A stretch of 62,758 nt of DNA, counting the filler, from Asterionella formosa (lineage: Eukaryota): the NCBI GenBank assembly GCA_002256025.1. It is 12 parts of 12 records of this genome, joined end to end, with 100 filler letters (N's around TTAATTAATTAA, not from the genome) between each part and the next. Parts side by side here need not be neighbours in the genome. Positions count along the whole stretch, not along the records: positions 41,934 to 47,070 come from NKIB01013207.1; 11 more parts are not named here. The stretch is one strand, 5' to 3'. Below, piece after piece: positions 3,001 through 62,758 of this stretch. How positions within the stretch are numbered: the first letter of the stretch is position 1; the number at the start of each line of letters is the position of its first letter. The translations under genes were made by a program, and so were the position numbers. The notes below the pieces were generated by a model that had not been told where the DNA came from, did no database searches, and saw only the letters and a list, made by a program, of their open reading frames with translations.

Positions 3001-3201
3001 CCTCAAGAGACTCCCCCAAATTTGACGAATACACATGCGGAAGATGATTTAATGCATTTTTCAAAGGAGCTGGGGTCTAGAATTGTGATGCACGAACCGT
3101 CGAAATCGACTTGCTTGAAACGGCCCCTTGAAACAAACGATGATGACTTTCCCTCGAAGAAAGCAACGATCCTGGTAACTTTGGAGTCCGCGACTAATTA
3201 A
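1..3201 (+). CDS. Multidomain chromatin protein (SNF5-like repeat, zf-4CXXC_R1-like Zn finger, PHD finger, bromodomain); 5'-partial
   Basis: Frame is open from base 1. EVIEWDL..AFAANVAHEYGL..LATDIQKQL is SNF5-like. CHICH..C..HSYC..HC..CPICC..C.C..C is a Cys-rich finger. CLICRKPGDLLCCDRCPRAYHIKC..WECHEC is a PHD finger. FIFRAPVD..YRKIVKKPMDLGTI..DIELVWHNCFTFN is a bromodomain. Confidence 0.85.
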   Translation, partial: GWDQKCLSTAVTVSFPLGEGDEDFYYYKEVIEWDLTDPRAPTAMAFAANVAHEYGLNFGQTMDLATDIQKQLDEFLENLTIYVTPMTMKDPNERERGKLPTSSRRLQLYGVPVPVVEGGLPLPTKQKQRAVATTRAPTPAPVNQPKPPSIRKLNEGDDDFNIRTDGPYRAEVMKRARLASMNDIEKIARSNGDNVVGFLEERTNWHCHICHSRKPISALFACGTSTHSYCDTHCRDRLGFSIAKPEFRPVTLDHCPICCLRCECTKCQRRLNAVAVEFRKQCISQGVANPEEADFDNILLYTAGRGGGGGGGGGGGGTVKKPTIARVNKTSGFKLNKKKAKIPFRDFPREVCASVDLDPGTATDYLTVFSSEGSFLHKDPCIAATEIETKKEFEDDESNLQEDGSVDYCLICRKPGDLLCCDRCPRAYHIKCIGDSVDPPDGRWECHECLKEKAGLEQDLVDGRSYLHNGGHTSIEKITASLVNFSNSVGFIESHQILSMIHEMLSKLIDYEFGFIFRAPVDCKFVPTYRKIVKKPMDLGTISSRLENGYYPRKYLNAKLSWDDIIAAVLEDIELVWHNCFTFNLEGSAVYKMAEVQRRRYLEMRRRSFDHLLSDAVKTRVNQFVSACEVDRAKDAPVPKEKTPQPSVPSKYKIEVKVSYGGNRRIVAILDPDSGMLAKLYSSQKSAFIAANFLQKIGHTPEWEPLNEFPLKSYIKSSTHDPSQLLFGYRWLLFDDLQAGSVVFGKAPSNLKSLLQDGKVFKRDCPLGFVEMFDGFSFYIFISIEEALCFSGLPRAVPIDQIRSRFCEMPPGEWKSIVGFNWRRIAPESGNSQGETAANETTTGVGSEKEEVIVKKDSITGRKLLGFKTIAAAHKDWIGCCLNSPMFHQPWNTSMEEFSSKFLDKDGHVDGITWQSMMIEQFTREPNETAQVEIESPENPEKERIPIDSNTENALKSPPSSIAATNRERLLGANETTTVERVHSIVEARTVDAIIALDVHPQETPPNLTNTHAEDDLMHFSKELGSRIVMHEPSKSTCLKRPLETNDDDFPSKKATILVTLESATN

Positions 3202-3391
3202 TTAAATAGGTTTGGCGATTGTCATTTGTATTTGGTTGATTACAAGTATGTAGTATTGAACCCGGTGAAGCTTTTCTACTTGCCAGCAAACAGAAAGTTG
3301 AAAAACAAATCTTATCCTATTAGTTTAGTTGCATGCAGTTGACTGAAATGACAGGCCAAGCCAAGCCTTTTCCAAGACACCAAAATATAAT

Positions 3392-4682
<1,291 letters not shown>

Positions 4683-16572: not shown

Positions 16573-19500
16573 CTCTCCCTGATCTCTGGTCCAACAGTCC
16601 AGTGTACTGTTTGAGATATTAGACGCATGTAGATCGTGGATTCTGGCTATGACATTCTTTGACAGAAGATCTGATGGATTCTTCTCCGTGTTGACATATT
16701 GAACTCTTATGCCTCCACATTCAACTTTCTCGCGTATAAAGTGATGTCTCACATCAATGTGTTTCGTTCGTCCTCCGGCTTGCTTGTTCTTCGATAGGAA
16801 AATTGCGTCAGTATCATCTGCTGATATAATGCTTGGTAGTTCAACAGTAGCGATTTCGTTTAAAAGATGTGCAGTGAACTTAGTTTCCTTTGCTCCATCT
16901 CTGACATTGACACATATTCAGCCTCAGCGCTTGACAATGTCACAATTGTCTGCCCTTTTGATATCCAATTAACTAGTGCAGTACCGCCAACGGTTCCCAA
17001 ATAGGCACTCGTTGATTTTCTTGTGTCAGGATTATCGCCGAAAGAGCTGTCAACGACATCTTGTACACATAGTTCCTTTGGTGGTCTCAACTTCAATCTT
17101 CGATTTTCGGGTTTAGCACAAATATACCCAAGTATTCTTTCTACTGTGTTCCAGTGCTCATCACTTGGATTATCCAAATGTTGTGACAATTCTCGGCATG
17201 CATTGGAACAAACAGGACCAATCTTTTTAACGTAGTTTAGTAGCTTGCCTACCATAGATCGGTACTCTTTATGCTTCACTGGATTCCCAGTTGACAATCT
17301 CAACATAGTACTGGGGAAAGCCGGAGTTAATGCATCTTTTGGAAAATGTCCAAAGATATCTTTGAAATCGTCTTTCATGCCTTGGACAAAACTTTCCATA
17401 CTACTCTCTAAGTAGCGTCCTGTAGAATCCTCTCCCCTTTGTACCACACGCCCAGGTGTTTCTTCAATTGTCCAAGTTCTTTAATTGTGAAATATTTCTT
17501 TATCTCCTTCCTGAACCACTCTACATCACTAGGCTTTCCGGCCACTGCGTAGTCGTCAACGTGTGAGGCAATTAGTAAGACTAATTTCCCATTCCATTTC
17601 AAATAGAAAATACATGCTTCCACTTGACATTGAGTCAGACCAACTAATTTCAAAATTTCAACAAGTTTCTTAAAAAACTGCAAAGCTCACTGAAATGTCC
17701 CATGTATCGCTTTTTTGAGCAAGATGCAATAATTTTCGGTGTCGGCTTTTGTTTCATAGCCAAGCTCTTCTATTCCTTCTGGCCAGCCAATATAGATTGC
17801 TTCGTCCATATCACCTTCTGGGAATGCCGCTTCCACATCAACAATTTTGCAAATCCATCGTTCGTTAACATCCTTGCTGTGATTATAGAGTGTGATTGCA
17901 AAAACTGTTCTTGTTGTTGTATCTGTTGCAACTGGGGCAAATGACTCCGTGAAGTCGACGCCAGGGATTTGTACATATCCCTTCACAACAATTCCTCCTT
18001 TATAGAAATGGATGGATAAGTCTTGTTCAGAATTCTTCTTAAACAACCATCGACTGCCTAGCATCTTGCGTTCATTGAGCATTTTCCTTGGAAATTTCTC
18101 CCACACTTTGCGTTTGTAGAAATTGTTAATTTCCACTTTAATTGCCTCGATCCACTTATCACGTTCAGGATCAGTCATTGCTTGTTTGTACCCTTTTGGT
18201 TCTCCAGGATCAGATGCTAATGATGTTGAATATATCCAATGTATTCCAACGACTCTGTCAATTTCACTGACCATTGTTGTAAGAACCTTGTCGTGTTGTT
18301 TTGGTGGTGGTGCCATCATAATCAGTGCTCTTCTAGCATTTATCATGGGGATCTGTGTCCATCCATCCAATTTCCTCATTTCTCGTTGCAATTTTACGGA
18401 ATACATCTATTCATGGTAAGTGAAAATAGAATGGAACTGCATGTTGTTGCATAAAAATAATATGACTAACATGTATTTGCTTCGCAGTTGTTACAACATT
18501 CATTAACATGAATACTAATAATGAAGGAAAGCTCTGATACGGAGAAGAAGGGAATGAGGAGAGGCAACCCGCCGCTATCAGCAACATCAGTTCATCCTTC
18601 GGAATCAGACAAGTACAAGGGAAAGGATGAAGTGGGCAGTTACAGTTGTGTCAGAAACGGGGTAGCAGGGAAGAAGCAGACAAGAGAATGAACAGGAGTG
18701 AGACGGTGTGAGATAACGGTTTCTATAGAAAGATTGAAACAATTCTAAATTTAGTAGTTAAATTACAATCCGTTTCCACATATTTTGGACAAATACTTCA
18801 TAGAGATACGATGGTAATAATATGGCTAAAAGATGAACAAATACACAATAAAGGATGTAGTTAAGGTAAATCGATGATGGTCTTGTAAGTACAATTAGTA
18901 ATTCATGGTCATGAGAAGGGCGATTGAAATTCAAAGAGAAGTAATGATTTCGACTTGAGTTGTTGTTACTCATTTACTGTATTTGTATGATTACTTTGTG
19001 GTTATCATTATGAGTCAATATGGATCAATATTAGAACAATATGATCAAATATTATAAGTATAAACATGCTTATCAAATATTCATATATAAAGTATGTACC
19101 TGTAACACAAATAACAAACGCGGTATGATACCCCTGATCTTATATGTACGATACTTTTGTTTGCAGACGTTTGGAAGCACTATCTGTATTCTCTCTCCCT
19201 GCTTCAGGGTTGTCAGCAAAATGCACATGAGGTTTTAAGGGGGGGGGGGTTTGTTGTAGCCAGGGTACTAGCTCAAACACTGGTAGCTAGGGGTACCACA
19301 ATTGCTGGGGGTAGTTTGACATTTTCCATGATGTCATATACAGTCGTATTTGTTGTGATATTGGACTTTCCATGCCACTCTCCCCACTTAATGTTCCTAG
19401 TATTGATCACTTTCTTGGTGTCTGGTCAGTACACTCTATATGTGTCCCCTGCATGGTTGTCAGAGTACCCAATCATTATACACTTAGTTGCTTTAGCCTC

Positions 19501-20568
19501 AAGTTTAGGTCTTTTTCCTGGTATTTTTACCCAACCAATTCTTCCAAATTCAACAAGATTATCATATATCTCGGGACACTTCCCATAGAAAATCCAATCT
19601 GGGCTTTTCTGCATGTTGTTTGTATTGTATACACTATTTGTGAGGCGTGTGTGTGTGTTGATACTTTCTGCCCATAAGAGTCCTTGTGACTCATCAGAAA
19701 ATCCTTCAACATTGCAGTGACGCTTCTGTCTCTAATAGTCACAAATTTGCGTTCCACCATACCGTTTTGCTGTGGGGTGTGTGGAGCAGTAAATTCGATA
19801 GTGATATTAAGCCTGTCACACATTGCAGAAAGTCCCTTGATATTTTCCCCAGCATTGTCACATGCATCGCAGGTACCAAATGATGTAGTTGGCATTGCGT
19901 AATTTAAGCAATAGTGGTTCCACTGTAGCCGCCATCTGCGACTTTTTCTTGACAAAGAAACTCCAGGATTTTCCACTTCATTCATCAACGACCAAAGTCC
20001 AGTAAGTACTCCCAACAATATTCTTCTTGTAAGGGCCACTTATATCTGCACCTAAACGCTCACCTGCCATAGTCGCTTTGTTAGTTGCACCTTTAGGTAC
20101 AGCCTTTGATTTTGCTTTAGCCAAAGCACATCCCTCACATGGCTGTTGGACTCCACTGGTCTCAATACCAATCGACTTCAATGTAGCACGCAGAGCTGCC
20201 TCGCTAGTGTGCCCGAATTTGTCATGTGCAACATTGATGTCCATACTTTTCTTAGGTGTAGGCTTAATAGGGTTGCCAGTCATTGGCGCAGCGTCCTCTT
20301 TGTTGTCCTCTGTGGACAATGCTGTTTCGTTGCCGTGCTTTTTAGTACCATGCATATAGTAGAGCACACCGTTGGCCTTGCTCTTGAAAGTTAGTCCGTC
20401 ATGCTCCCCTTCCTTGCGTAGGGTCATCTTGTCCTTGAGAATACCAACCTCGAAACTGCCATTACGCACAAGCATACCGACACTTAGTGTATTCTTGTGG
20501 AAGGTAGGTGTATAGTACAGGACCTTCTTCAGGAGTAGGACCTTCTGTGTAGCAGTATCAGTGAGGAG
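16570..20568 (-). mobile_element. Degenerate Ty1/copia retrotransposon pol (pre-integrase, integrase, RT, RNase H) with frameshifts and stops
   Basis: KKVLY.PTFHKN.LSVG; H.KFGH..CEGC; DNAGEN..TAPHTPQQNGMVER; GYVQIPGVDFTESFAPV; HVDD; TRKSTS..LSSAEAEY; RHHFIREKV..NPSDLLSKN. Order IN-RT-RH. PPT AGGGAGAG at 16580-16573 is followed by TGACA. Confidence 0.93.
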
Positions 20569-20834
20569 TGTTGAAATTGCGTCCCGAAGCACTCTATGCT
20601 TTCTTGTACCCTGTAAGGACAAGTCAGGGACCAAATAGGCTGTAGATATAACAACGATGTCTCCGTGATCGATTGTAATCGTTCCTAAGAGTTTTAATAG
20701 AATTATGGGTTTTTACTGTTGGCGTAGATTGTTTTCGAATTCTCTGGTACCATATTCTTTCTTGATTCATTCGATTCAATATGTAGTAGGTAATTTATAC
20801 CGGGATTTTCTTTCCTAAAATATTTTCTCCAACA
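20569..20834 (-). mobile_element. 266-bp LTR (TGTTGG...TTTCAACA) of a second LTR retrotransposon nested in the copia pol
   Basis: TGTTG/CAACA termini, preceded by a PPT-like CAGCAGGAGTG. Copia coding homology resumes at 20568. The first 95 bp are identical to 31261-31355 (+). Confidence 0.7.
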
Positions 20835-37920: not shown

Positions 37921-39636
37921 TGGCTGGATGGAATGTTTGGGGCCACTGAGTTGACCCTGTAGGCCTGGTATTAGCATAAACCCTAAACCTACTGTATGGT
38001 ATATAATATTTTCCGCCTTGATTGGCATCTTCCAATCACATCCACCATTGTTGTCATCATTCTGTTGCTTTACTCAACAATAGAACATCCTCCCACACCG
38101 CTTCAAATACCTTATTTCTTCCATGACTAGTGCTACTAGTAAAAACAGTAGGCGGCATGCTGGGATGACACAATTTGGTTTACATATGAACTATTTTGTG
38201 TTGGGCACTCAGATCCATGCCTACATGACCAATCATGGTTTCATATGGAAAAGCTCTTGAGCTTGATAGTGGGCAAGCTGGAGCTGAAACTGTAGAAAAT
38301 GTCTGAAATAAGGTCATATAGTAGTTACAATGAAGATACAACAAAAATTTCACACCTATCGCTGTGCACTGGACTTCGATTTCATGTTCATCACCATGGC
38401 TGGTGAACACAACAACAACAAGATCATGGATGCAGAATGTAACAAACTGGTTCAACCAGTGGACAGCGATTTCTTTGCATCATCAGAAAAGGAGGAGTAG
38501 TAGCAAGACGAAGTGCTTTCTTCAAAGGTCTAAAGCTAAATAAATTTGTACTATAATCAGTATGATTGACCATCATGGCGGGGGGAACAACAAGCAAGTC
38601 AAGCATGACAGCAACAATCAACAAGCACATACCTGTCCTCTCTTGCTTGAGAAATACGAGTTGATGTAGACCGCTGGTTCTCATCATGTTCTGTCTAGTT
38701 TGCTGAGTTTGTGAGAGCGCATTGGGATTGACGACTTTTCGTTGTCATTGCAGATGATAACATAAAATTAGCAAAAGTCATATTGTGATAAGAAAACAAC
38801 GATGAAACACTACTATTGTAGAGCAGCAGGATACAAGGAAACACATGATCACTAAAACTTGCTGCTGAGATCTGAATTGAGATATTGTAGGACGTGTAGA
38901 AATAATAGCAAAGGAATATAATTTTATTAAATGGCTGATCATATCTGACGAAAATACTGAAGTATTGGTGCCACCGCGAAGAAGCAAGAACGATGTGACG
39001 ACATGGATCCCACAAGAAGTCGAATCATCAAACAACCAGCCACATCCATTTAATGATGAATCGCTAATTGAATCATCAATGAACACATTTTAAATGAATC
39101 TGAACACGCTGGAAGGCAAGAAAAATGTATATAGTGGAATTGCAATCGACAACACCTTGCAGAAGACAATCATTTCGTGCTTGTTCATGTAGTTCATCCT
39201 ACTCTCTTCCAATTTTGCCAGTACATTTTCCTTAAGTTAACGGTAGTCTATTGGCCTTGAGAGGCTCTAGATATCAGCAATCAATTTCCTTTAAATAAAC
39301 GGCAGTCCACCATTGCGGCAGGCAAATGTAGGGACTATTGATAATATTGAAAGTAGTTTGGCGGTCCAAAAACGGAGCGTATGAAAAAAACAAGTATTTT
39401 TATATGAAGGGCAATTGCAGGATTGAGTAACCCAAAAACTGATCAAATGAAATAAATAATGTTTGTTGCTATATATGAAGGGCGATTGGCTCGTTCGCAT
39501 CCCACATACAAAATATTTTATAACCCGGCTCTGCAAGAAGCAAGGGCAAGGTCAACCTGCGAGGGCCTCCCAAGGTTCTCGAGTACACAAGATCAGGAGT
39601 AGGCAGTCTCCTCCCTTGACAGTACAGACGGTATAA

Positions 39637-40062
39637 GGGGCGATCTTAACAAAGATACAATTCAATTTTCGTTTTGTATCTTAAATCTCGAGTCTTTAGA
39701 AAGAGCACATTTCACAAATATTTCTCAGTGATTGCAAAACATTTTCGTTTTTCTCGTGTCTCTGCAAACATTTGCATCAGACTCAGCTAAGTAATATGAA
39801 TGTGTGCTTCAATTTTACAACCTGTCTGATTATCATCATTACTCAAATGACAATGAAAAAAGTCGACTGAAAGAACTTGACAGTTAGACTGACATTGATA
39901 CTGTTGATTCAGAACAGGAAATAGAAGACCAACAGAGTTTTTTCTCGTGGCATCATTTGATGCTCCAGAAAATGAAAGTTACTCTGTCCCAAGGAAACTG
40001 GATGACCAGTGGTGGGTTGCAAGTACCACCACTCCTTCTAAATTTTTCATTGACAGCAAACG
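39637..40062 (+). mobile_element. One end of a diverged relative of the Harbinger-type element at 42937-45387
   Basis: TAA|GGGGCGATCTTAACAAAGATACAA. 39637-39940 aligns with the reverse complement of 45090-45387; 39961-40062 aligns with 43301-43400. Confidence 0.7.
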
Positions 40063-41933
40063 AAGATTGACTTTTCATTTCAGTATCCAAAAATACACCA
40101 GTAGGGCTCTAATTTTAATGACATAAAAAAATATAAGTTTTTTCATGGTGTGTGCATCAAAGCAACATCAACCAATTCATTCTGGCGGCATTAGACAGAA
40201 ACTTTTATCTGTCTTGATTCTTGACAATTTGCCAATGGCTGTCATCGGCCCTGCTTGTTTGTTTCCAAAGATTTATTGGTGAAACAGATAAGTCATTGGA
40301 TTCTCCCTGAGGTTAACGAGTACAACAGGTATATGGAAGAAATACAAGGAAGGCAATTTTAACTCATCACACAAACACAGGTGAGTATTGATGCTGTGAC
40401 CACCATCCACTACGAGAAACGCACCTCCCCTAACAAAACAATCACTCTTGCTACATATACTGAAGTTTATCTATTTGTTGATTCCTTCATAATTCCTGAT
40501 GGCTTTAAGGTCAAGGTTTTGCGAAAAATTTGCGTCAGATACAAAGCTTGCTTGTAGATGCAAATATGCGAAGAAGGCTTTCACTGTCGGTTTGATAGTT
40601 TGATTTTGAGGAGAGACAGCTTGTCACAGAGACTTTACGCATAAATTTTCAATGTACATGAATTAGACAATTTCTGGGAAAGCGATTATAACAATGAAGA
40701 TGATGATTAAATTAATGAGGAAAACAAAATCAAAGAAGATTGTCACAAGAATGAAGTAAATGGTGTCTATGATGCACATGAGGGAGTGTATCCCCGGCCC
40801 TTTCTCTTCATTCCATTGACCACCATCACCATGTCCTCTGTTGGGCTGATACTAGTCTAGTAGGTAGGGTTCTTTTTGAGCATCTAGGGATAAATATGCC
40901 AGGAAGTACTATGCGGTTGTTTTTATTAGCAATTGAGCAATTTTAAAGCGCTATATAAGTGAAATTTACTATAAAGTACTAGCAATCAGCATTCAATCAT
41001 GAGGCTAGTAAATCTGGCATTCAGAGTGCCGAAGGGAGACCAAAACAAGGGCAATAAATGGATAGCATGGAGGTTGAGGTATTGGCCACAATAAATGTGC
41101 AGAAGTCAAGTAAAACCAAAAACATCGCTAAGCAGAGAATAAGGATCTAAACAAGAGGATAAAAAATTATCAACCTTGACAAGACTGGAGGATTTCAAGT
41201 GGATCACATTGAGCAAGAGGAGAAACAGACAAGATGAAAAAAGCAAACAGAAACAGAATCACCAGAAAAATCTATGGAATGGAGAACCTCTCCAACAGGG
41301 ACAGTAGTAGGCAAAATTGTCCCTCCCCAATCATTGCAGGACTCAGATTCTGAATCCAACACATCAAATCATCACATTGCAGCAATGGGAAGAAGTGTGA
41401 GATCAAATAGCACACAACACAAAAGGACATCAGGATCCAATTCCGATAGGGAGTGCTACTGAAACAATCCTCAATCTAGTAAAAGGAAAGGTAACAGGAA
41501 ACCCTAAAACAAAATAAAACCTAATGAATTAAAATGATAAGGTCTGATCAGAACAACGGTGTTCATAAGATTACTACTTTGTTAATTTCTATTCTTCGTC
41601 TTCATCCATATCTTGCTCGACTTCTTCTTCCTCTTTCAAAATCATGGTCTTGCCAAACAAAGCCTGCCTAGCTTTGGATTCATCAAATGACAGAATTGCT
41701 TGTTGGGGAGCTGGCAATAAACTCAAAATGATACCAGGAGGGTTAGCAGCAGCATAAAATGCTTGCTTCAACCAAATTTTGACTGGGCGAGCTTGTAAGA
41801 AAAATGTCAGTGGGGCACCCAATAGCAGCAAGTNNNNNNNNNNNNNNNNNNNNNNNNNNNNNNNNNNNNNNNNNNNNTTAATTAATTAANNNNNNNNNNN
41901 NNNNNNNNNNNNNNNNNNNNNNNNNNNNNNNNN

Positions 41934-42119
41934 AATTTTATACATGAGAAGACTGAAGATGGATACTATGTTGCTGTGGTCTATGTACAAACATGTGAAA
42001 ATCCTAGTGACCTGCTTTCAAAGAATGTAACTCAGAAGGTGCATGAATTGCATGCATATAATATTTGCAATGGGACAATGGATTATTGGAACTGGAACAG
42101 GGAGGATGTCAAGATTTAG
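41934..42119 (+). mobile_element. Ty1/copia RNase H C-terminus, PPT and 3' LTR start
   Basis: FIHEK..ENPSDLLSKNVTQKVHELHA.NI.NGTMD is paralogous to 16570-16752; PPT AACAGGGAGGA is followed by TGTCAAG at 42107. Confidence 0.8.
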
Positions 42120-43592
42120 TACTGCATGCATATTAGTTCAGTCGAACTAATCAATCTTGAATAATGTTCCAACCAAAATCAAATATTGAAATGCTTTGAG
42201 AATTTGAACAGCATTGATAGCCAAGAGCTATATCAGCAAACCAAGGTAAATATTCGAATGGAGAATGTTCTAAGTAATCAATATTTCAATGAAGGAAAGG
42301 TATATATGAAATGTAGATAGCATTGAATATTCATGATTGCTCTGCTAAGTGAGTGGAGTTGAGTTCTTGTCAGTTGAAAATTGAATGTCTAACAACACAA
42401 TGAATATCTATATACAAATTTGGGACGGTAACCGTAATAATTGGTCATGTGAACGATTACAAGATAGATCAAATAAGCTCACAATAAGGTGGGATGAGAA
42501 CAGAAGGTCTTAATACACTGACTTTTGTCTAGAAAAGAGTTAGCGTTGCAGTCAGACTGCAGAAGAATTTAACATCTTCCTCCTCCAATATGGCACTCCG
42601 GGACCTGGTACCCTGCATGTAATGATAACACTTCTATTACTAGCAGCAGCAGTACACAGACTTTTTGAGCGGTACCAACGTACCCACCAGAGTATTGGAG
42701 TACCAAGCTATACTTACAAATAGACGTGTATGTTAAATTATTCAAGCTTGACGTTGAATTCGTTGCAATGGTTAGTGGTCACGATTCCACTCACTGTTCT
42801 TATAACTTTGATTTTTTCACTTTGCTTGTCAATGAGTAGTTGCTGCTAGAATGCATTCGTCTTAAAAGGGCACTTGCCTTTCTATCACATTGCCTACGAG
42901 ACACACAGTATCATATCTGAAAAACACTTTATGTTAGGGCCAATCTTAACAGAGATGAAAAAAATCAACAAAGTGTTGCTTGGCCAAAATTTTTTCGCAT
43001 CTCACATATCTGGGGGATATGTTGCTTCCAGGAGCACATTTTTCGTTGTTCCGAAATGTCTATCTGTGTGCATCACTGCAGATACAGAATTAAGCAACAC
43101 TAATTTTATATATTTAAGCAATGTATGCCATGAAATTAAATTAATCAACAAAGACACCATTTTTATCTATAACAGCAACAACAGAATCGAATTTTGGGAG
43201 GAGGGATTCTCAGCAGCAAGTATTAGTATCACTAGCTACTCCTGGAATAATGCTTAACATCACTTGTAAAGAACAACTTGCGCAATAGCATGATTTGAAT
43301 CTTCAGACAATGAAACTTACCGGTACTCTGCAGCAAGGAAATAGGATGACCAGTGGGTTGCAAGCATCACTCCTGCTGATTTTTTCATTGACAATGAAGG
43401 GTCATTGATGACGATAAAAGACATGCTCATTCAACAGATATCGCTACAATGACTTCCGTTGTATTTGCGTTCACTTTAAAATCACCGGATAAAGAAACAA
43501 AACAAAGATGATAATGATTACACTCATTAAGAATTAAAGACTCTTGATCTTTGAGACGTCATGGGGTACAACAAAAAGTCATGAAAAGAACC

Positions 43593-43730
43593 AAAGAAGT
43601 ATCTGAAAAGAAACGGCGCTTCCTTTACTCCTGAATCATCAACAAGGTTGTCTCGTCGCCTAAAGAAGTATCTGAAAAGAAAAGGCTCTCCCTTTACTTC
43701 TGAATCATCAACAAGGAAGTCTCCTCTCCT
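43593..43730 (+). repeat. 69-bp tandem duplication inside the Harbinger element
   Basis: AAAGAAGTATCTGAAAAGAAA..CCTTTACT.CTGAATCATCAACAAGG at 43593 and 43662. Confidence 0.85.
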
Positions 43731-43952
43731 AATACTATCATAGCATCTTTCTACTTCTATCAGAGAAGATATTGCCAATGACTCAAGTACAGATTCCGAG
43801 ATATCTCCTTCCCAATTGTCTGCATTTACATCTCCAGTTCCTGCTGATATTTTATTGGATGACGATTGTGAAAAATCCCACCAGATTATTAAGAAACAGA
43901 AACGACCTCCCAAGAATCAGAGGAAAAGAAATGCTGCAACTGCTCCCAAATT

Positions 43953-44499
43953 CATGGCTGCTGTACAGCAATTGTGGCGGTTATCATTGGATGTACACTA
44001 ACTGATGCAAATGCTGGAGATTCCCAAGCTGTCCTTTGTAGGGCGGGTGGAAAGACGGAAGCATTAATTTTTGACCACAAACCACAGCAAGATCGAGAAA
44101 TTGATAGAATTCACAAGGCTGGTCGATTTGTCAACCAATTTGGGCGTGTGAATGGAAACTTGAACCTTTCTTGATCCATTGATGATCATCTGAAATAGAA
44201 GCAAGTTCCTGGAACTACCCCAGCAAGACAAATGATTACAGCGGAACCCGATATTGTTCACGTGATTTTGCATCCAAATGATCTATTCATTATTTTGGGT
44301 TGTGCTGGTATTTGGTATTGCCTCACTCATGAACAGGCGGTCAAAATACGTGAGAGAGCAAATTGACACCAAGACGCCAGTAGAGATTGGAATTAAGATG
44401 CTAGATGAAATCATTAGTGAAGATCCTCGATCTACCCAGCAAGGTATTGGCGGAGATAACATGATGATTATGGTTATTGATTTGCGACCACAGCAATGA
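43953..44499 (+). pseudogene. Captured 3' half of a protein phosphatase 2C gene (stops and frameshift)
   Basis: CTAIVAVI..ANAGDSQAVLCR..DHKP..RIHKAG..GRVNGNLNLS*SIDD..ITAEPDI..LGCAGIW..GGDNM. Confidence 0.88.
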
Positions 44500-44630
44500 G
44501 CCTACCAGTGAAAACTCTATAATTAAAAGTCTCAGTAAAATAAAAATGTCATTATATTTGTCGAATCATTTCTGACAACGGCTGCATGAAGTAGGTAAGA
44601 ACCCAATAGTATAGGGTTGGGCAACCGTTA

Positions 44631-44916
44631 TTAAAGATTCAAATGCTTGGGGTCACTAGGGAACCAGGCTGCCCCTTTGGAATGTTGGGCAGCCCTAAAA
44701 ATAGCATAACGACACGCTTAAGTCCAATACCTCCGCCACCATGGGGAAGAGCACCATTACGGAATGAGTTCACATAATCCTGAATCGTCAATTACATCGA
44801 TTCCCCATGCTTTGGCCTGCACTTCCATCAAGTCTGGGTCATGAACACGCTGAGCCCCCGACAAAATTTCTTGTCCACAAGTGATGTGATGGAAGGTCGA
44901 AGGAGTTCCAGTAGTT
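44631..44916 (-). pseudogene. Captured 3' end of cytosolic aspartyl-tRNA synthetase (frameshifted)
   Basis: Manual translation: NSFD..GQEILSGAQRVHDPDL..GID/..[32 protein letters not shown]/..FPSDPK (class II motif 3). Not in the ORF track. Confidence 0.88.
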
Positions 44917-45481
44917 GATTGAAAGCTTCAAGAGACATGTGATATTCACGATGAAATCTATTCTCATGAAGAAGCTTTGTGACATGTTCATTTCAGTCAA
45001 TTCGTTGATGCTCCCATTTTGGAATTCACACTGGCTTCGACTTTTGTTCATAGGACTCCAAAAATGATAATGTAACTGCTGCAATTAACAAAAAGCTCTG
45101 TTGTTCTGCTTCTTTATCAAGATTGTCAATGACATCCCAACTGTCAGGTTCATCTGGTCGATTTGTTGTTGTCGTTACAGCAATGATAATGGTCAGACAC
45201 GTTGAATAATTGAAGCTCACATTGCAAAATTTTTGTTGAGTCTGATGCACATGTTTGCAGAGACATAAAAAAAACAGCGAACTGTTTTACCATTACAGAG
45301 ATATATTTGTGAAATGTATCTTTGTTAAGATTCATTTTTTCTGAAGATACAACAAAAAATAATTTGTATCTCAGTTAAGATTGGCCCTTAATCTATTAAT
45401 TTGATCTTACATACAATATCAAAATGAAAAAAATGAAGCACATGTTTACCAACCCCTTTTCCTAGCGATTCCCGCATGCCT

Positions 45482-46099
45482 CTATTCATCAGTATTACCT
45501 TCCGCCAACGTCTCTCTCTCTGTCTTACGTTTTTTGCGTTTAGGAGAAACTTCTGAAGATTGAATGGCGTAGGAAGATTCATTGAAGTTGGAATGCGGCA
45601 CACTGAATCGCCGCGGCAGTGCCGAAATCATCCCATTTTTGTGAGCCCGAGCTAGCTCCTCGGTATGCTGAAGCCCCTGCACTACCATGGAAGGAAATAA
45701 CATGCTAGCTACCGCTGAATTGCGTCGTTGATAGCGTTGTCGAGGCGGCGGAGCGCTGTCCGATTGCAATGAACCCGTTGCAACTTGTATTCCAGAGAGC
45801 ATGCAAGCTGCTGCTGAATTTCTTCGTGGACACGACGGTTTCCGCTGCTCTTCCGACTGCAGACATAAAATAGAGTTCATGCCTTCGATCGCCATGGTGT
45901 CGTCCATGTCTTGGTTTGGCTTGCACACCGACTTGTCATTTTTACTCATTCTATGACTGATGTCATCTGTGGTTGAGTCGCTTTCCGCCATCCCTTGCAA
46001 TGTGAAGCCTGTGTAGCAATCGGTTGTTGTCATTGTGCGTTCCAACGAGATCCGGTGAATGTTGTCTTGCTTGTCAATCGAACTGTTCGGTTCAACCAT
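45482..46099 (-). CDS. Hypothetical protein with repeated RRxS motifs, 205 aa
   Basis: ATG-initiated ORF; RRNSAAACML, YQRRNSAVASML, RRFS; basic C-terminal KRKKRK. Confidence 0.65.
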   Translation of the reverse strand: MVEPNSSIDKQDNIHRISLERTMTTTDCYTGFTLQGMAESDSTTDDISHRMSKNDKSVCKPNQDMDDTMAIEGMNSILCLQSEEQRKPSCPRRNSAAACMLSGIQVATGSLQSDSAPPPRQRYQRRNSAVASMLFPSMVVQGLQHTEELARAHKNGMISALPRRFSVPHSNFNESSYAIQSSEVSPKRKKRKTERETLAEGNTDE

Positions 46100-47170
46100 G
46101 AAGACCTACGGTATCATTGAATTTTGTTAGGCAGGTTCGTAAGAGGTTTTCGCTGTTGCTTTCTTGTTTTTTTTAACTCGGCATATGTCATGTTGTAAAA
46201 CAACCAACGACGTTTGCTGTATACAGCGATATTGCACGTACGAACTGCCAAAAAGTTGGCTGGTTCAAGATTTGTCTATTCTTCCTCGTCAGAATTGAGT
46301 GATTCTACCGTGTAACGTACTTTAATTGGCTAACGTCCACGTGGTACTGTTGTTACTGGTAACTCCGAATATTGTATTGACTATCATCGGGTATACCGGT
46401 ACCAGGTACCAGGTACCTGTTACCAGGTACTTTACCCCGGCGGTTATAACATTCTTCGGATTGGAGGTCATTTGTCTTCTTCTACCGGTAACAAGTAAAC
46501 CCCAGGTACGGTACCAGGTGCTCCAAATCTAATGATTCTCTACATACCACACTCACCAACGAACGCCCCTGCCGCTAGACATTTCTGACAACACTCCTAT
46601 GTGAGCTGCACCTTGAGAATTGACTTTCTTTTACGTCATAGTCGCTATACCTCTCGAAAAAGCATGACTTTTCGTGAGCGTGCAGGAGGATATGCAATCA
46701 GTTGGACATTTATCGGTTAAGGCTATTTATGTACATCGCTCATGGCAACGGTAGTTTTACTTGCTACCAGTAGGGTATATATTGTTAGATTCCGGCAAAG
46801 TGCCGGCACTCGCCATTTACGGCACCTGGTACTCCGTACATATTCCTTTCCTTTGGAAAATTCTGTATGAGGTGCCAGCCGTACCGGTATTCCATTCGGG
46901 TCATTTGTCCACTTTGTAGGATCACCTTAAATGTTGGTTTCCTTATGATTACGACCTACATGCACTCACAAGCACGCTGACTTGTTTTACTGGTAAGCAA
47001 AATGTGACAGTAAAAATGTTACATAGGTAAAAAAGCAAGGGGAAGGAAACAATACAAATATTGAGTACCGNNNNNNNNNNNNNNNNNNNNNNNNNNNNNN
47101 NNNNNNNNNNNNNNTTAATTAATTAANNNNNNNNNNNNNNNNNNNNNNNNNNNNNNNNNNNNNNNNNNNN

Positions 47171-47820: not shown

Positions 47821-48460
47821 GACCTTTCTGACAGATCGGTGATCTTGTTATTCCAATTCTGTAATCAAGAATTCATCAAATGCCGGTAATAGCAGGCCTT
47901 CGTTCAACAACTGGGGTCATCCCCCTCGACGAGTCATATTGTAATGGTTGGTCCAATATTTGGTCTACATACTACCGAATACAGAATGATCGTTTGCTCA
48001 AAATGTCATTAACTCATACCAGAATGTGACAGTATGCCTGATGACATTTTCATGTTCTCTTGCTGGCTCATCTCCATGAATAAGCATTCTCTGTTGCCGA
48101 CCAGCTACATCTTCTGCCTAGCAGCAACTTACTTTTCGATCCGATAGCTACCGTACTAGGGTGGGGAATGCATATTCATGGAAATGAGCCACATGCAAGA
48201 GAACATGAAAATGTCATATGAGGCATACTGTCACATTCTGGTAAGAGTTAATGACATTTTGAGCAAACGATCATTCTGTATTCGGTAGTATGTACACAAT
48301 GATCATGCAATATACTGGTTGTATACGCAGTCCAAATATGGGACCAATTATTACAATATGACTCGTCGAGGCGGATGAGTTGTTGCACGAAGGCCTGCTA
48401 TTACCGGCATTTGATGAATACAGAATTGGAATAATACACGATCACTGTATCTTTAAGGTT
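47821..48460. repeat. Long inverted repeat (foldback): arms about 47821-48090 and 48164-48460
   Basis: For example TACATACTACCGAATACAGAATGATCGTTTGCTCAAAATGTCATTAACTC and ATTCATCAAATGCCGGTAATAGCAGGCCTTCGT each have an exact reverse complement in the right arm; a few indels. Confidence 0.92.
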
Positions 48461-55959: not shown

Positions 55960-56131
55960 NNNNNNNNNNNNNNNNNNNNNNNNNNNNNNNNNNNNNNNNN
56001 NNNNNNNNNNNNNNNNNNNNNNNNNNNNNNNNNNNNNNNNNNNNNNNNNNNNNNNNNNNNNNNNNNNNNNNNNNNNNNNNNNNNNNNNNNNNNNNNNNNN
56101 NNNNNNNNNNNNNNNNNNNNNNNNNNNNNNN
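55960..56131. other. Intra-scaffold N gap (no linker)
   Basis: 172 N with no TTAATTAATTAA core. Confidence 0.9.
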
Positions 56132-56437: not shown

Positions 56438-57532
56438 CAGTGAAACCTCCCTATAAGATACACCCTGTTTACTCCTACATTTATGGCCTTTTCGTATCCT
56501 ATAGGGAGGTGTATCTTATAAGGAGGTTCAGCTAGTTTAGGCTGTTTTGTACTCCTTACTTACTACAGTACCAGGGTACATAATATGTACTAAACATTGA
56601 TTTTCATTTGGAAGAAGAAGAAAAAGATTCAATTGGAGGTTGAATAAGCCTAGAATGAGACCTTTTTTGAACAGCGGCAATTATTTCAAGCAATGGAAGT
56701 TCCTGCTCAAATAAATCTATTTCTGTCACATACATCAGTGCTGTTTTTAAACCAAGCAATGCATCTCTTGAGGTTATAGGAACCTTATTGGACACATCAC
56801 TGATTGCTGCCATAGCACTGCCTTCATCCAAGGCACTGTCATCCTCCTCATCCCCTTCATAAATATATTCAGCAACCAAATTTGCAATCAAAGGTTGAGC
56901 ACATGGGATTGCATATTCACCAAAACAATCTTGTACATAATGAATATCAACTTCTCCAAGCCTCTCCATCAGCTCCTCCACTTCATTTTCAGTTTCCTCT
57001 AGTACTGATACACATTCTTCATCACATACTTGTTTAAATCCACATGCTTTAAAGCATTTTTGAATTGTTTCAATCATGACACTTCCCCAGGATGTAGCCA
57101 TAAACTTCATTGCATCAATAACCTGCAATTTCTTAGCCAGATCTGCTGCATGTTCTCCTATTTCAATAAATTGTAATAACTGCAAAACTTGATGCTTACA
57201 AGAAAGAGCTTTCACACTTCTAATGATTCCAGCATCCAAAGGTTGCAACAAACTTGTTAAGTTTGGAGGGAAAGATTGAATCTTTACATGTGTTAGCCTT
57301 GAGCTTGTCTCCTCATCAACAATGTGGACAGGGGCGTTATCCAAGGAAAAAAGAATCGTCCTGTTCTGAGAAGCCATGTATGCATTCAAATCCAATAGAT
57401 ACTCATTAAAAATAGGATTTGTCATCCAAGCTTTGCTACTTGACTTGTACACAACTCCAAGGCGGATCAAATCAATGTTTCGAAAACAACGAGGCTTCTT
57501 GGATTTCCCAATTATGAGCGGTTGCAGCTTTT
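56438..57532 (-). mobile_element. pogo/Tigger (DDE_1) DNA transposon: 3' TIR plus transposase C-terminal part (56604-57532, 5'-partial)
   Basis: IGKSKKPRCF..KAWMT..LDNAPVH..FPPNLTSLLQPLDAGII. TA|CAGTGAAACCTCCCTATAAGATACACC TIR at 56438, with an inverted inner copy at about 56507-56532. Confidence 0.9.
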
Positions 57533-59375: not shown

Positions 59376-62300
59376 ATGGCTCAAGCTCCCAACGCCCATG
59401 CGGCTTTCGTCTTTGCTCTAACCCCAGCTCTCGCAAATCCTGATCCCGTTGATTACAACTCAAATGAAGGGATGAAATTGTACAAGTCTGCAACCGAAAA
59501 ACTCAATCATCCCTTCGATGGTGAAACTGGAGGCCTCCGCCTTTTCCTTCAAGCCTTGCAGCAACGAGCCGACGCATTTGGATGTGCCTCCATCCTCACG
59601 GTCCCTGATGACCACAACGTTGGGCGAAACCTAATCACCGAATATGTAAGGGTCATCATGGCAAATGTGGTTGCTCACGCAGCCACACATGTTCATTCCC
59701 AGACGTGTGACGCACAGAACTGTGCGCAGTTGTTTACGTGCATTTACGATTCACTTTCAATGGAGGCCTTGCTCAAGGTTTCTACAGACTCATCTGCCTA
59801 TCGTCTTACGTCACCTACAGCCCCTACACACATAGTGGCAAGTGGTGCTGCATTCTTGAAACTTCTCATTACGAGATGCACGGTCGATACACGATCCACG
59901 GTGGCTACCATTCGCCGTACCCTCAGCGTGTTGGATGAAAACATGTTATCGGTGGACTGCAACATTGAGAAGTTTAACCTCCATGTCCGTGTGCAACGTG
60001 ACGCACTTATGTCTCGTGGGGAAACTTCTTCTGACCTACTGACAAATCTGTTTACAGCATACGAGGCTGTGGAGGATAAAGTGTTCCATGATTACATGAT
60101 TGGTCAGCAGGATCAGTATCACGATGGACGGGTGGATTTTGATGTGGATTCGCTGATGGACCTGGCCCTAAATAAATATAAATGGTGTGGGCGGTCCCAT
60201 CCCAGTGCTTCTCAAAGGCACGGTGAAGTGGCGCATAGAGGACAACCTGGGGTGTATTCACATTTTTCGTATTCCAGGAACTTATTTTGCCCCGGCGGCC
60301 CCCTTTAGAATGTTTTCTCCTCAACATTGGAGTCAGGAGACTAATAAGTGCCTTAAGCAAGGCCTTAAGGGAGCATGGTGCGCCACCTACGAGGACAGGG
60401 TAACTCTCCACTGGGGTAATGATAAATATGTGCGATCTATCTGGCTGGATCCAAGCACAAATGTGGCAACTGTACAGACTGCACCAGGGTGCACCAGATA
60501 TCAGATCTACGAGGCCATTATAGGATCAACGAAGGAACACAATAGATCTAAAATGTTTTAATGTTAACACTGTCACCGATGATGAATGCTCAGACCGTGA
60601 GGAGGATGTTAAGGTGCGATCTAAGCTTCCCTACAGTTTGAATGAAGATGAACCATCAATAATTGGGGGGCCAGAGAAGGGAGATGCCAGTGGAACACAT
60701 GATCCGTCCGTTAAGGGAGATGCCAGTGGAACACACATTCTTGAGTCTCACCTTGAAACAGTCTTTCATGACGCATCCGCCAAGCCAACTGAGACTGAAG
60801 ATCAGGATGCCCTGACGCCTACCACGGAATTGCTTCGTCTCCACTACCGGCTTGGCCATCTGCCCTTCAGCCAATTGCGGAGCATGGCTGCTACCGGATT
60901 TCTTCCCAAGAGACTCTTGCAGGCCCGCATTCCCAAATGCGCTGCCTGCATGTATGGAAAGGCGACTCGAAGGGCTTGGAGGTCAAAAGCACCACCAAGC
61001 AAGGTGGGGGGCGGAATGGCGACTTTCCCTGGACAGTGCGTCTCCGTGGACCAGATGCAGTCCCCTACACCAGGGCTGATTGGGCAACTCAAAGGAGTTC
61101 CCACCACTCAGCGATATATGGCCGCAACGATCTTTGTTGACCATTTCAGCCGCCTTTCATTTGTCCACTTGCAGCGATCGCTGACCTCGGATGACACCGT
61201 GAAGGCAAAAAGGGCCTTCGAGCGATACTGCGAGTCACACGGCGTGAAGGTGATGCACTACCATGCTGACAACGGTCGATTTGCGGACACGCTGTTCTTG
61301 CAGGACATTGCCGAGCAGCGCCAGAGAATTTCGTATTGTGGTGTCAACGCACATTTTCAAAATGGTGTGGCAGAGAAACGAATTAGGGACTTACAGGACT
61401 TGGCGCGTACTGCGTTATTGCACGCCACTGCCCGATGGCCACGAGTCATGTCAAATTGCCTGTGGCCATATGCACTGCGTACGGCTAATGATGCACTTAT
61501 TAGCGCTCCGCGTCGTGTGGACGGAAGGTCCGCCGCAAGCGTGTTTTCCCGGACTGACGTGTCCCCTAAGTTGGGGTCATTTCGCCCTTTTGGGTGCCCT
61601 ACGTACGTTCTGTCTAACGAGCTGGCTGCCAGGAAAAACATACCTAAGTGGTTAAAGAGAGCAAGGGTAGGCTTGTATCTAGGGCAGTCCCCACAGCATG
61701 CACAGTCCGTTGCTCTAGTGTTAAACATATCGACGGGGCTGGTGTCACCGCAATTTCATGTTGCGTTCGACGACCTCTTCGAAACCGTGGGAACCAAGGA
61801 GGACGTATATGAGATTGGCTCGCTCTCCGCCACGCATTTCTCCGAGAAGTCGTCCGGAGCCAAAGGATCACGAGGGCGCACCAAGCCGGTCGTCGTGGAC
61901 AGTTTAAGTCAAGAGATTTTCCCGCTCCCTCTCCTCCTCTCCCCACAGGGACCGCCACCCCTGGTTATTCCAGTCGTAAATGAGGATGGGGTCCCACATG
62001 AGGCTCTCCTGGAAACCGGGGCAGGACTCCCACTCCTTGCGTCACAGGAGTCCGCCTCTTCAGGAGTGCGTTGGTCACAACGACACAAGCCGTCACGCCG
62101 GTTACAAGAGAGTGTTGAACAGGGCCTGCTGTGCAAGGCATCGGCACTCGAGGATGTGGATGGGGATGAAGAGTATCACCTGCAGGTTATGATGGAAGAC
62201 CCAATTGCATTCGCAGCAAGATCATCCGATCCTGATACGTTACGCGCTGACCAGGCTCTAAGGGAGCCAGACAGAAAGCAGTTTATAGCCGCCATGGAAG

Positions 62301-62758
62301 CCGAGGTCATGGCGCATCACAATAATCAACATTGGAAGGTGATTCCGAAGTCAGCCGTGCCACTCGGAACCAAAATTCTGCCTTGTGTGTGGGCGATGAA
62401 GAGGAAACGCCGGATAGCCTCAAGGGAGGTGTAGAAGTGGAAGGCCAGGCTAAATCTGCATGGCGGGAAACAGGAACATGGGGTGAACTACTGAGAGACC
62501 TATGCGGCTACCCTGTCATGGCCACCCATCTGCTTTATGTTGGTCCTGTCCTTAATGCATGGATGGAGTACCCGGCAGATAGATTTTACACTTGCGTACC
62601 CGCAGGCCGACGTGGAATGCGACTTATATATGGAAATCCCGCATGGGTTCGAGCTACCGGAGGGGGGTCGAAATGGTCATTGTCTCAAGATTCTGAAGAA
62701 CATTTATGGTCAGAGACAGGCAGGTCGTACTTGGTCCTTGCATTTGACTAAGGGGCTA
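59376..62758 (+). mobile_element. CoDi-type Ty1/copia retrotransposon (gag, integrase, RT start), defective and 3'-truncated
   Basis: gag FALTPA..DY..G..Y..AT..L..FDG; integrase H.RLGH..CAAC, SVDQM, YHADNGRF, HFQNGVAEKRIRDLQ; RT VWAMKRKR..KARLNLHGGKQ.HGVNY with in-frame stops at about 62432 and 62492. Confidence 0.93.

Follow-up and report, generated by a model that had tools for sequence, protein, structure and literature searches.

The Asterionella formosa DNA studied here carries, between positions 42937 and 45387, the decayed ends of two housekeeping genes, and the question it raises is how these came to lie tail to tail between the inverted repeats of a transposable element. The window is the whole stretch of DNA that was analysed, 62,758 nucleotides of joined genome records including filler, and all coordinates are positions along the whole window. 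The original prediction, made from the letters alone, was that a PIF/Harbinger element had captured the convergent 3' ends of a protein phosphatase 2C (PP2C) and an aspartyl-tRNA synthetase (AspRS) gene. Our results make it highly probable that the window element is one copy of a multicopy, non-autonomous Pack-type PIF/Harbinger derivative in a diatom, which captured its cargo and then multiplied; the window copy itself is most likely functionless.

Ends and backbone of the element

The left terminal inverted repeat (TIR), GGGCCAATCTTAACAGAGAT (42937-42956, plus strand), is identical at 19 of 20 positions to the reverse complement of the right one (45368-45387, minus strand), and TTA stands immediately outside each, the left copy (42934-42936) being a putative 3-bp target site duplication repeated at the right flank (45388-45390). 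These ends had been predicted, and they withstood our shuffle controls: the 14-nt terminus, allowing two mismatches, occurs three times in the window against 0.34 expected (none of 100 shuffles gave three), and 20-nt inverted repeats with at most one mismatch, 300-6000 bp apart, form nine diagonals in the real window and are absent from all 30 block shuffles of it. The insertion is not an assembly artefact, because X2 records 28 and 30, which come from an independent study, span both of its junctions and show one difference each. No empty TTA site was present among the 15 contig joints listed of 56, which is not evidence of absence.

PIF/Harbinger transposons are recognized by short TIRs and a 3-bp target site duplication, typically TWA, and encode a DDE_Tnp_4 (IS5-like) transposase and a second, Myb-like DNA-binding protein, ORF1. 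A TWA flank was found at four of the five family termini seen (TTA twice, TAA at a copy starting at 39637, and TAA at 45332 in an X17 loose end), the remaining one being flanked by CTA. Together with the DDE_Tnp_4 domain of the transposase relatives described below, these flanks support the predicted membership of the element in this superfamily.

The element had also been described as lacking a transposase, and this is true only of the catalytic domain, which is indeed absent from the window copy, because positions 45351 to 44885 on the minus strand hold what is left of the 5' end of a PIF/Harbinger-type transposase gene, some 160 codons interrupted by frame breaks and cut short after LLRPSIT. 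Residues 33-194 of P0008 matched this remnant at 80-88% in tblastn, 11 metagenome ORF fragments match it at 71-94%, and the X1 loose end before 44885, translated by hand, reads VNVVKSNASS, which is the continuation found in P0005. A phmmer search with the remnant returned 1252 matches at E<=1e-3; 14 of the longer proteins among the 150 listed, 34-50% identical to it, were scanned against Pfam, and DDE_Tnp_4 (PF13359, E 1e-5 to 7e-29) was present in 13 of them, with weak Plant_tran matches in six. In a word-based search for a full-length or intact autonomous transposase of the family, none of the 1367 word-sharing candidates above 320 aa scored, and five N-terminal transposase fragments gave only sub-threshold HTH matches in Pfam and no PDB relative.

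On the other side of the cargo, the left backbone arm of the family (42957-43949, plus strand) is supported by X1 depth and by matches to L004 and P0161. It contains a 71-bp tandem duplication (43593-43663 and 43662-43732, 89% identical) and a plus-strand ORF at about 43693-43951, a candidate ORF1, whose continuation is carried by L004; residues 6-95 of P0161 match 43693-43962. This ORF belongs to no Pfam family, and its best Atlas score, 0.89, is of low recognition and under the useful range.

The captured gene fragments

Ten ORF translations were submitted to Pfam in search of gene fragments. PP2C (PF00481) was matched at 43893-44174 (E 1.4e-23) and 44199-44366 (E 7e-10), and tRNA-synt_2 (PF00152) at 44639-44791 (E 6e-8) and, under the family cut-off, at 44757-44927 (E 0.038); of the rest, five had no match and one had a weak, sub-threshold match to TMEM101. 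The predicted decayed PP2C C-terminus was thus recovered on the plus strand and could be refined to 43950-44511, native stop included. It corresponds to residues 287-470 of P0160, a diatom PP2C of 470 aa, to which it is 71% identical over 147 aa and, in a second frame, 51% over 74 aa by tblastn. Its lesions comprise two in-frame stops, a frameshift close to 44345 and, at 44497-44499, a premature stop; the TAG at 44196-44198 is private to the window copy, as 15 other X1 contigs have T at 44198.

For the minus-strand fragment, the synthetase is identified as AspRS because the PDB sequences matched were AspRS in 14 of 15 cases for 44639-44791 (the other being AsnRS) and in 12 of 12 for 44757-44927. 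The original prediction was therefore right about its identity, while the boundary given, 44916, has to be moved: the fragment, the last 80 or so codons of the gene decayed by frameshifts, occupies 44639-44878 and ends where the match to the parental contig described below ends. Six further nucleotides at this right joint (44879-44884) were given by the aligner to neither parent nor backbone. Between the two convergent gene ends lies a captured intergenic spacer of about 127 bp (44512-44638), in agreement with the predicted 130 bp or so. X17 record 21 and L001 both cover this spacer continuously, and its depth (25,672 in bin 44514-44685) is comparable to that of the coding parts of the cargo.

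The parental locus

The source of the cargo can be traced to X17 record 21, a polyA-RNA contig from the probable source sample (2376 nt, depth 220), which covers 43950-44878 in one unbroken match of about 91%, with 74 other letters and 12 gaps, and is unlike the element on both sides beyond the cargo limits. The 30 letters of this contig before 43950, translated by hand, read RLICNLPDHT, and the diatom PP2Cs P0160 and P0162 read R-Q-ICNLPDH-P at the equivalent site; the 30 letters past 44878 read LSNSYDFFIR, and in solved AspRS structures F-[IM]-R-G directly precedes [E]EI.SGAQR. Because the contig continues into conserved coding sequence of PP2C at one end and of AspRS at the other, the parental genes would be arranged tail to tail across the same spacer, and the existence of an expressed parental-type locus with the two genes convergent is supported, as known from an RNA contig and not from genomic DNA. 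A search for parental genes as convergent neighbours had been proposed, and it is in this expressed form that a parental-type pair was found. A contig from a separate study, X12 record 10 (1627 nt), likewise stops at 43950. The unbroken match, together with the capture joints shared among copies, also supports the proposal that two opposite-strand gene ends and their spacer were taken as one contiguous host segment.

As to the nature of these data, the evidence for the parent is X17 record 21, and an RNA-assembly contig that spans two genes is not proof that they share a DNA molecule. By eye, no AspRS-like ORF was seen in the roughly 470-570 bp downstream of PP2C in L002 and L003, which are PP2C genes of another diatom, 71% identical in nucleotides, and this gives no sign of the convergent arrangement being widespread.

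Other copies and the probable spread of the element

The right joint between backbone and cargo recurs in L001 (93% over 43978-44961), P0001 and X17 record 22, and the left one in P0161 and X12 record 9. A cargo-free family member, L004, is 87% identical to 43130-43951 and diverges exactly at 43951; on the right, 16 X1 and 8 X2 contigs begin to match at 44885 and share nothing to its left, the X1 ones running on there as transposase. Yet another kind of X1 contig, seen once, passes from 43878 to 45120 through 31 other letters. Copies bearing these termini and this cargo had been predicted, and contigs and metagenome ORFs now provide them as partial copies. That several share the same capture joints points to mobility after the capture.

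The summed depth of X1 contigs, which is not a copy number, was 21,000-56,000 over the cargo, exceeding that over the unique flanks (about 760-1,200) some 20-70-fold, and 87,000-313,000 over the backbone (87,000-221,000 in the left arm). At 11 listed cargo positions, a letter other than that of the window copy was found in 8-22 different X1 contigs each. A metagenome scan with the PP2C fragment yielded 267 pattern matches and only four confirmed loci, all short.

An alternative reading of this abundance is that the cargo unit had a single origin and owes its further copies to segmental or tandem duplication, so that TIRs bound only the window copy. The other cargo copies are in fact seen as partial contigs or ORF fragments, none of them complete from TIR to TIR with 3-bp flanks of its own, as this reading would have it. 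However, the backbone depth drops to some 760-3,700 where the bins contain the two TIRs, and the repeat unit therefore ends at the TIRs; moreover, TAA follows other termini of the family, and the copies differ from one another by 7-10% and carry private lesions, like dispersed old insertions. We accordingly regard duplication as improbable, and amplification by transposition as the better account.

A model for the capture

In the scenario we favor, an ancestral element would have carried a plus-strand ORF of no assigned family at its left and a minus-strand transposase gene at its right. While a break or gap within this element was being repaired, synthesis would have switched template to the locus where PP2C and a cytoplasmic-type AspRS stand tail to tail, copied some 930 bp (184 terminal codons of PP2C, the spacer of about 127 bp and the last 80 or so AspRS codons) and then switched back, so that the cargo would take the place of the left ORF's 3' part and of everything in the transposase past its first 160 or so codons. 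The family transposase, acting in trans, could then have moved and multiplied the chimera, because its termini and subterminal regions were kept. At the left joint, the match to the backbone extends through 43951 and that to the parent begins at 43950, and this 2-bp microhomology, AT, fits template switching during gap repair.

The same microhomology bears on a route through RNA, in which a read-through transcript over both gene ends would have been reverse-transcribed into a break. RNA contigs do span both gene ends (X17 record 21 and X12 record 12), and the captured part holds no intron that could distinguish DNA from RNA; yet neither joint has a poly(A) tract, both joints lie within coding sequence, the two shared base pairs agree with template switching, and a single RNA that is sense for one gene and antisense for the other is a less economical source, which together leave this route very improbable. 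Least credible is a host locus decayed in place and bracketed by chance by two independent solo transposon ends, which the richness of the neighborhood in family fragments (38825-38870 and 39637-40070) might suggest, but which is already contradicted by the recurrence of the same joints in L001, P0001, P0161, X12 record 9 and X17 record 22, by a cargo many-fold deeper than the flanks, by the full genes at an expressed locus elsewhere and by the matching TTA flanks at the two ends.

Relation to known elements

Pack-MULEs, which are elements of the Mutator superfamily with 9-bp duplications and long TIRs, resemble the diatom element in that, in plants, they hold gene fragments captured between TIRs, chimeric ORFs and decayed pseudogenes, but theirs is a different superfamily from PIF/Harbinger. 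Closer are the Pack-PIF elements already described in maize and rice, which are likewise non-autonomous and PIF/Harbinger-type, with short TIRs, host gene fragments and multi-member families (PMC8903248). Unlike these plant elements, the one described here resides in a diatom, its cargo is one continuous segment with two convergent gene ends and their spacer, and it retains the 5' 160 or so codons of the transposase gene. Fusion of neighboring insertions is favored for some Pack-PIF families in that study (PMC8903248), whereas internal replacement fits the diatom element better, because both of its joints lie deep inside element ORFs.

Pack-TIRs have also been described in 100 animal genomes, and the multicopy ones share host-derived internal filler, short microhomology at the breakpoints and later amplification by transposition; their median microhomology is 2 bp, the length seen at our left joint, and the capture models weighed there are gap filling and fork stalling with transposition (PMC8277862). 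The words Harbinger and PIF are absent from the main text of that paper as searched (PMC8277862). As for diatoms, Harbinger-like transposons place the superfamily in Thalassiosira pseudonana, with captured host gene fragments going unmentioned in the portion of the report available (PMC2806351), and a preprint on a Phaeodactylum MULE mentions Pack-MULEs, in the portion available, solely to say that its element is not one (10.1101/2023.01.02.522487). In line with the original prediction, we found no description of a Pack-type element in diatoms in the literature searched, most subscription journals lying outside it, which is not proof of absence.

Capture of this kind is familiar from plants and animals, so that what is unusual here is the host and not the event; the finding extends gene-fragment capture by PIF/Harbinger elements from those groups to a diatom, a stramenopile. 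It is also an unusually complete natural case, since names can be given to both joints, to the parental locus, to a relative free of cargo and to several daughter copies, which makes the element suitable for testing models of capture by template switching.

Neighborhood and possible consequences

A second, partial and rearranged member of the family lies at 39637-40070 on the plus strand, with the terminus GGGGCGATCTTAAC preceded by TAA. Its first part (39637-39943) is the reverse complement of 45090-45387 at 73%, and 39950-40070 resembles 43288-43408 (73%) in an orientation impossible by simple deletion. A second end of this copy was looked for and not found, and 19 small ORFs scanned over 39637-41833 for other cargo gave one sub-threshold match and nothing credible. 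A single composite element from 39637 to 45387 was considered and rejected, because its flanks would differ (TAA at one end and TTA at the other, read on one strand) and an N linker intervenes.

To the right of the element, an expressed host ORF of 207 codons with no Pfam family (45482-46105, minus strand) has its stop codon 91 bp from the element flank, and two RNA contigs run from it into the right TIR, X17 record 23 (45374-46090, depth 177, two differences) and X12 record 15 (45369-46124). Other RNA contigs match Pack copies at low depth, for example X12 record 11 (depth 7.1, one difference to the window copy) and X17 record 22 (depth 14.7); the depth of genes is 177-220. DNA can occur in RNA libraries, and contigs show neither strand nor level; we therefore make no claim of expression for the element. 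With tens of copies that are sense for PP2C and antisense for AspRS, and with the window copy in the path of minus-strand read-through, the family could feed antisense or small RNAs against the two genes, or a new protein could derive from the fusion seen in P0161, where the backbone ORF is joined in frame to the PP2C part. We consider such a role unlikely; if true, antisense or small RNAs would tie transposon silencing to PP2C and AspRS dosage in a diatom. Pack copies are already catalogued as predicted proteins in metagenomes (P0001 and P0161), and because they resemble PP2C and AspRS genes they can inflate gene counts and mislead the annotation of diatom genomes and freshwater metagenomes.

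Results

The element at 42937-45387 opens with GGGCCAATCTTAACAGAGAT and closes with its reverse complement (19/20 positions alike), and TTA is read immediately outside each end. Because the window has 3 matches to the 14-nt terminus at a tolerance of 2 mismatches, where 0.34 would be expected (0/100 shuffles got 3), and because 0/30 block shuffles of the window gave a 20-nt inverted repeat (at most 1 mismatch, 300-6000 bp), this TIR pair is not due to chance, and the 20-bp TIRs with TTA flanks of the original prediction were borne out. Of the 14-nt matches, the third, at 39637, belongs to a related terminus that follows a TAA. About 40 bp in from the right end, at 45318-45332, there is a second TIR-like core, GTTAAGATT, and another copy in X17, a polyA-RNA contig set, ends ~33 bp earlier than the window copy (loose end at 45332).

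On the - strand, 45351-44885 codes for the first ~160 transposase codons, with frame breaks (tblastn, 80-88% to protein record P0008), so that the element is not, as had been claimed, devoid of transposase as far as the 5' part is concerned. This remnant is matched by 11 metagenome ORF fragments at 71-94%, several of which run beyond ...LLRPSIT as VNVVKSNASSG... and then into a helix-turn-helix-like stretch; a search for longer family proteins did not recover the catalytic domain of the element's own family. Searched with phmmer, 1.84 billion representatives yielded 1252 matches to protein record P0005 at E<=1e-3; from the 150 matches listed, 14 of the longer proteins were picked, of which 13 have DDE_Tnp_4 and 6 also match Plant_tran weakly. 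Based on DDE_Tnp_4 in these relatives, the TWA flanks and the short TIRs, sequence comparison would place the family in PIF/Harbinger. The left-arm ORF at 43693-43951 (+), which carries on in L004, a cargo-free metagenome locus of the family, has no recognisable family in Pfam or Atlas and can thus be no more than a candidate second Harbinger protein. The left arm also holds a 71-bp tandem duplication (89%) at 43593-43732, both units of which are present in L004.

Within the TIRs, Pfam matched PP2C on the + strand at 43893-44174 (E 1.4e-23) and 44199-44366 (E 7e-10), and the class II synthetase core on the - strand at 44639-44791 (E 6e-8) and 44757-44927 (E 0.038, under the cut-off). As PDB matches were AspRS in 14/15 and 12/12 sequences, respectively, the synthetase fragment is AspRS. 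The PP2C fragment spans residues 287-470 of the 470-aa diatom PP2C P0160, relative to which it carries two in-frame stops, one frameshift and one premature stop, in agreement with the decayed gene ends of opposite strand originally described here.

At the left joint, L004 matches the backbone over 43130-43951 at 87% and then diverges, and the parental-type contig match starts at 43950, hence a 2-bp overlap, 'AT'. At the right joint, the parental match stops at 44878, and 16 X1 and 8 X2 contigs, from public sequencing runs, match no further left than 44885, and the consensus ahead of that point (VNVVKSNASS, hand translation) continues the transposase; the six bases at 44879-44884 are assigned to neither parent nor backbone. 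Judging from these boundaries, the host segment probably took the place of the element's inner part, between two points within the element's own ORFs.

The parental-type contig, X17 record 21 (2376 nt, polyA-RNA, same sample as the best-matching DNA run), matches 43950-44878 unbroken (74 differing letters, 12 gaps) and differs from the element for >255 letters beyond both match ends. Its hand translation reads RLICNLPDHT before 43950, vs R-Q-ICNLPDH-P in the diatom PP2Cs P0160 and P0162, and LSNSYDFFIR beyond 44878, where the window reads on as GQEILSGAQR and solved AspRS have F-[IM]-R-G-E-E-I. X12 record 10, a lake metatranscriptome contig, likewise breaks at 43950. Because both end translations of X17 record 21 are PP2C and AspRS coding, there would seem to exist a transcribed locus, represented by an RNA assembly contig, where the two genes stand tail to tail with the same spacer, in line with the convergent parental neighbours foreseen.

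The same cargo is found in other copies, as was also anticipated: the right joint recurs in the metagenome locus L001 (93% over 43978-44961, where one frame carries PP2C, interrupted by only one stop), in P0001 and in X17 record 22, and the left joint in P0161 and X12 record 9. Summed X1 contig depth was 21,000-56,000 over the cargo including the spacer, 87,000-313,000 over the arms and ~760-1,200 over the unique flanks, the drop sitting in the bins containing the TIRs, and a non-window letter was present at 11 listed cargo positions in 8-22 different X1 contigs; as summed contig depth is not copy number, these values say no more than 'many copies'. Only the window copy has the TAG stop at 44196-98 (T at 44198 in 15 other contigs), so decay is independent from copy to copy. 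X2 records 28 and 30, from an independent study, span the two insertion junctions, which rules out an assembly artefact and means that the insertion is not limited to one sample. In P0161, a metagenome ORF of 172 aa, the backbone ORF is in frame with the PP2C fragment, so that a chimeric protein is predicted; in the window copy, by contrast, the two are in different frames.

Discussion

The best reading of these data is a three-step account, in which template switching at microhomology, while a broken or gapped Harbinger element was being repaired, would have led to internal replacement; the chimera would then have been mobilised in trans, and its copies would afterwards have decayed neutrally. 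Capture at the DNA level of one contiguous segment, as first proposed, is supported because a single segment holds two opposite-strand gene ends with their spacer and no poly(A). The repair route could be either a gap filled in after excision or a stalled fork followed at once by transposition (PMC8277862). Gene-fragment capture of this kind is already known: Pack-PIF families are reported from maize and rice (PMC8903248), and Pack-TIRs from 100 animal genomes, where microhomology has a median length of 2 bp (PMC8277862). Harbinger-like elements are reported in Thalassiosira pseudonana (PMC2806351). A Pack-type element in diatoms was not found in the literature searched, where the sole diatom paper naming Pack-MULEs does so to exclude them (10.1101/2023.01.02.522487).

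The window is eukaryotic, with a chlorophyll a/c-type antenna gene, GAPDH, and copia-like and pogo-like elements, and its closest named PP2C relatives are diatom; the public runs containing the stretch are labelled 'algae metagenome', the probable source, and freshwater or lake metagenomes. Between 5147 and 57632 it consists of ~5.14-kb pieces with a linker every ~5.24 kb (44 N, TTAATTAATTAA, 44 N), and a further N run lies at 55960-56131; contiguity across linkers is not certain, and the element lies entirely within the piece 41934-47070. The window is rich in transposons, with ORFs or remnants (pogo-like DDE_1 transposase ORF, copia-like reverse transcriptase/integrase) at 56607-57530 (-), 17690-20712 (-) and 60524-62431 (+). 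Further fragments of the element family lie close by at 38825-38870 and 39637-40070. The one at 39637 is a partial copy whose transposase-side end is linked to backbone segment 43288-43408 in an orientation incompatible with a simple internal deletion; a second terminus was looked for there and not found. Two other very high-copy repeats, 41934-42621 and 46234-46577, flank the unique insertion site, with summed X1 depth up to 808,000 and 162,000, respectively, the latter with numerous loose ends and back-joints near 46394-46430. Lastly, a ~60-nt inverted repeat unrelated to the element (47848-47909 / 48381-48434) bounds a ~590-bp stretch that resembles a MITE from a different family.
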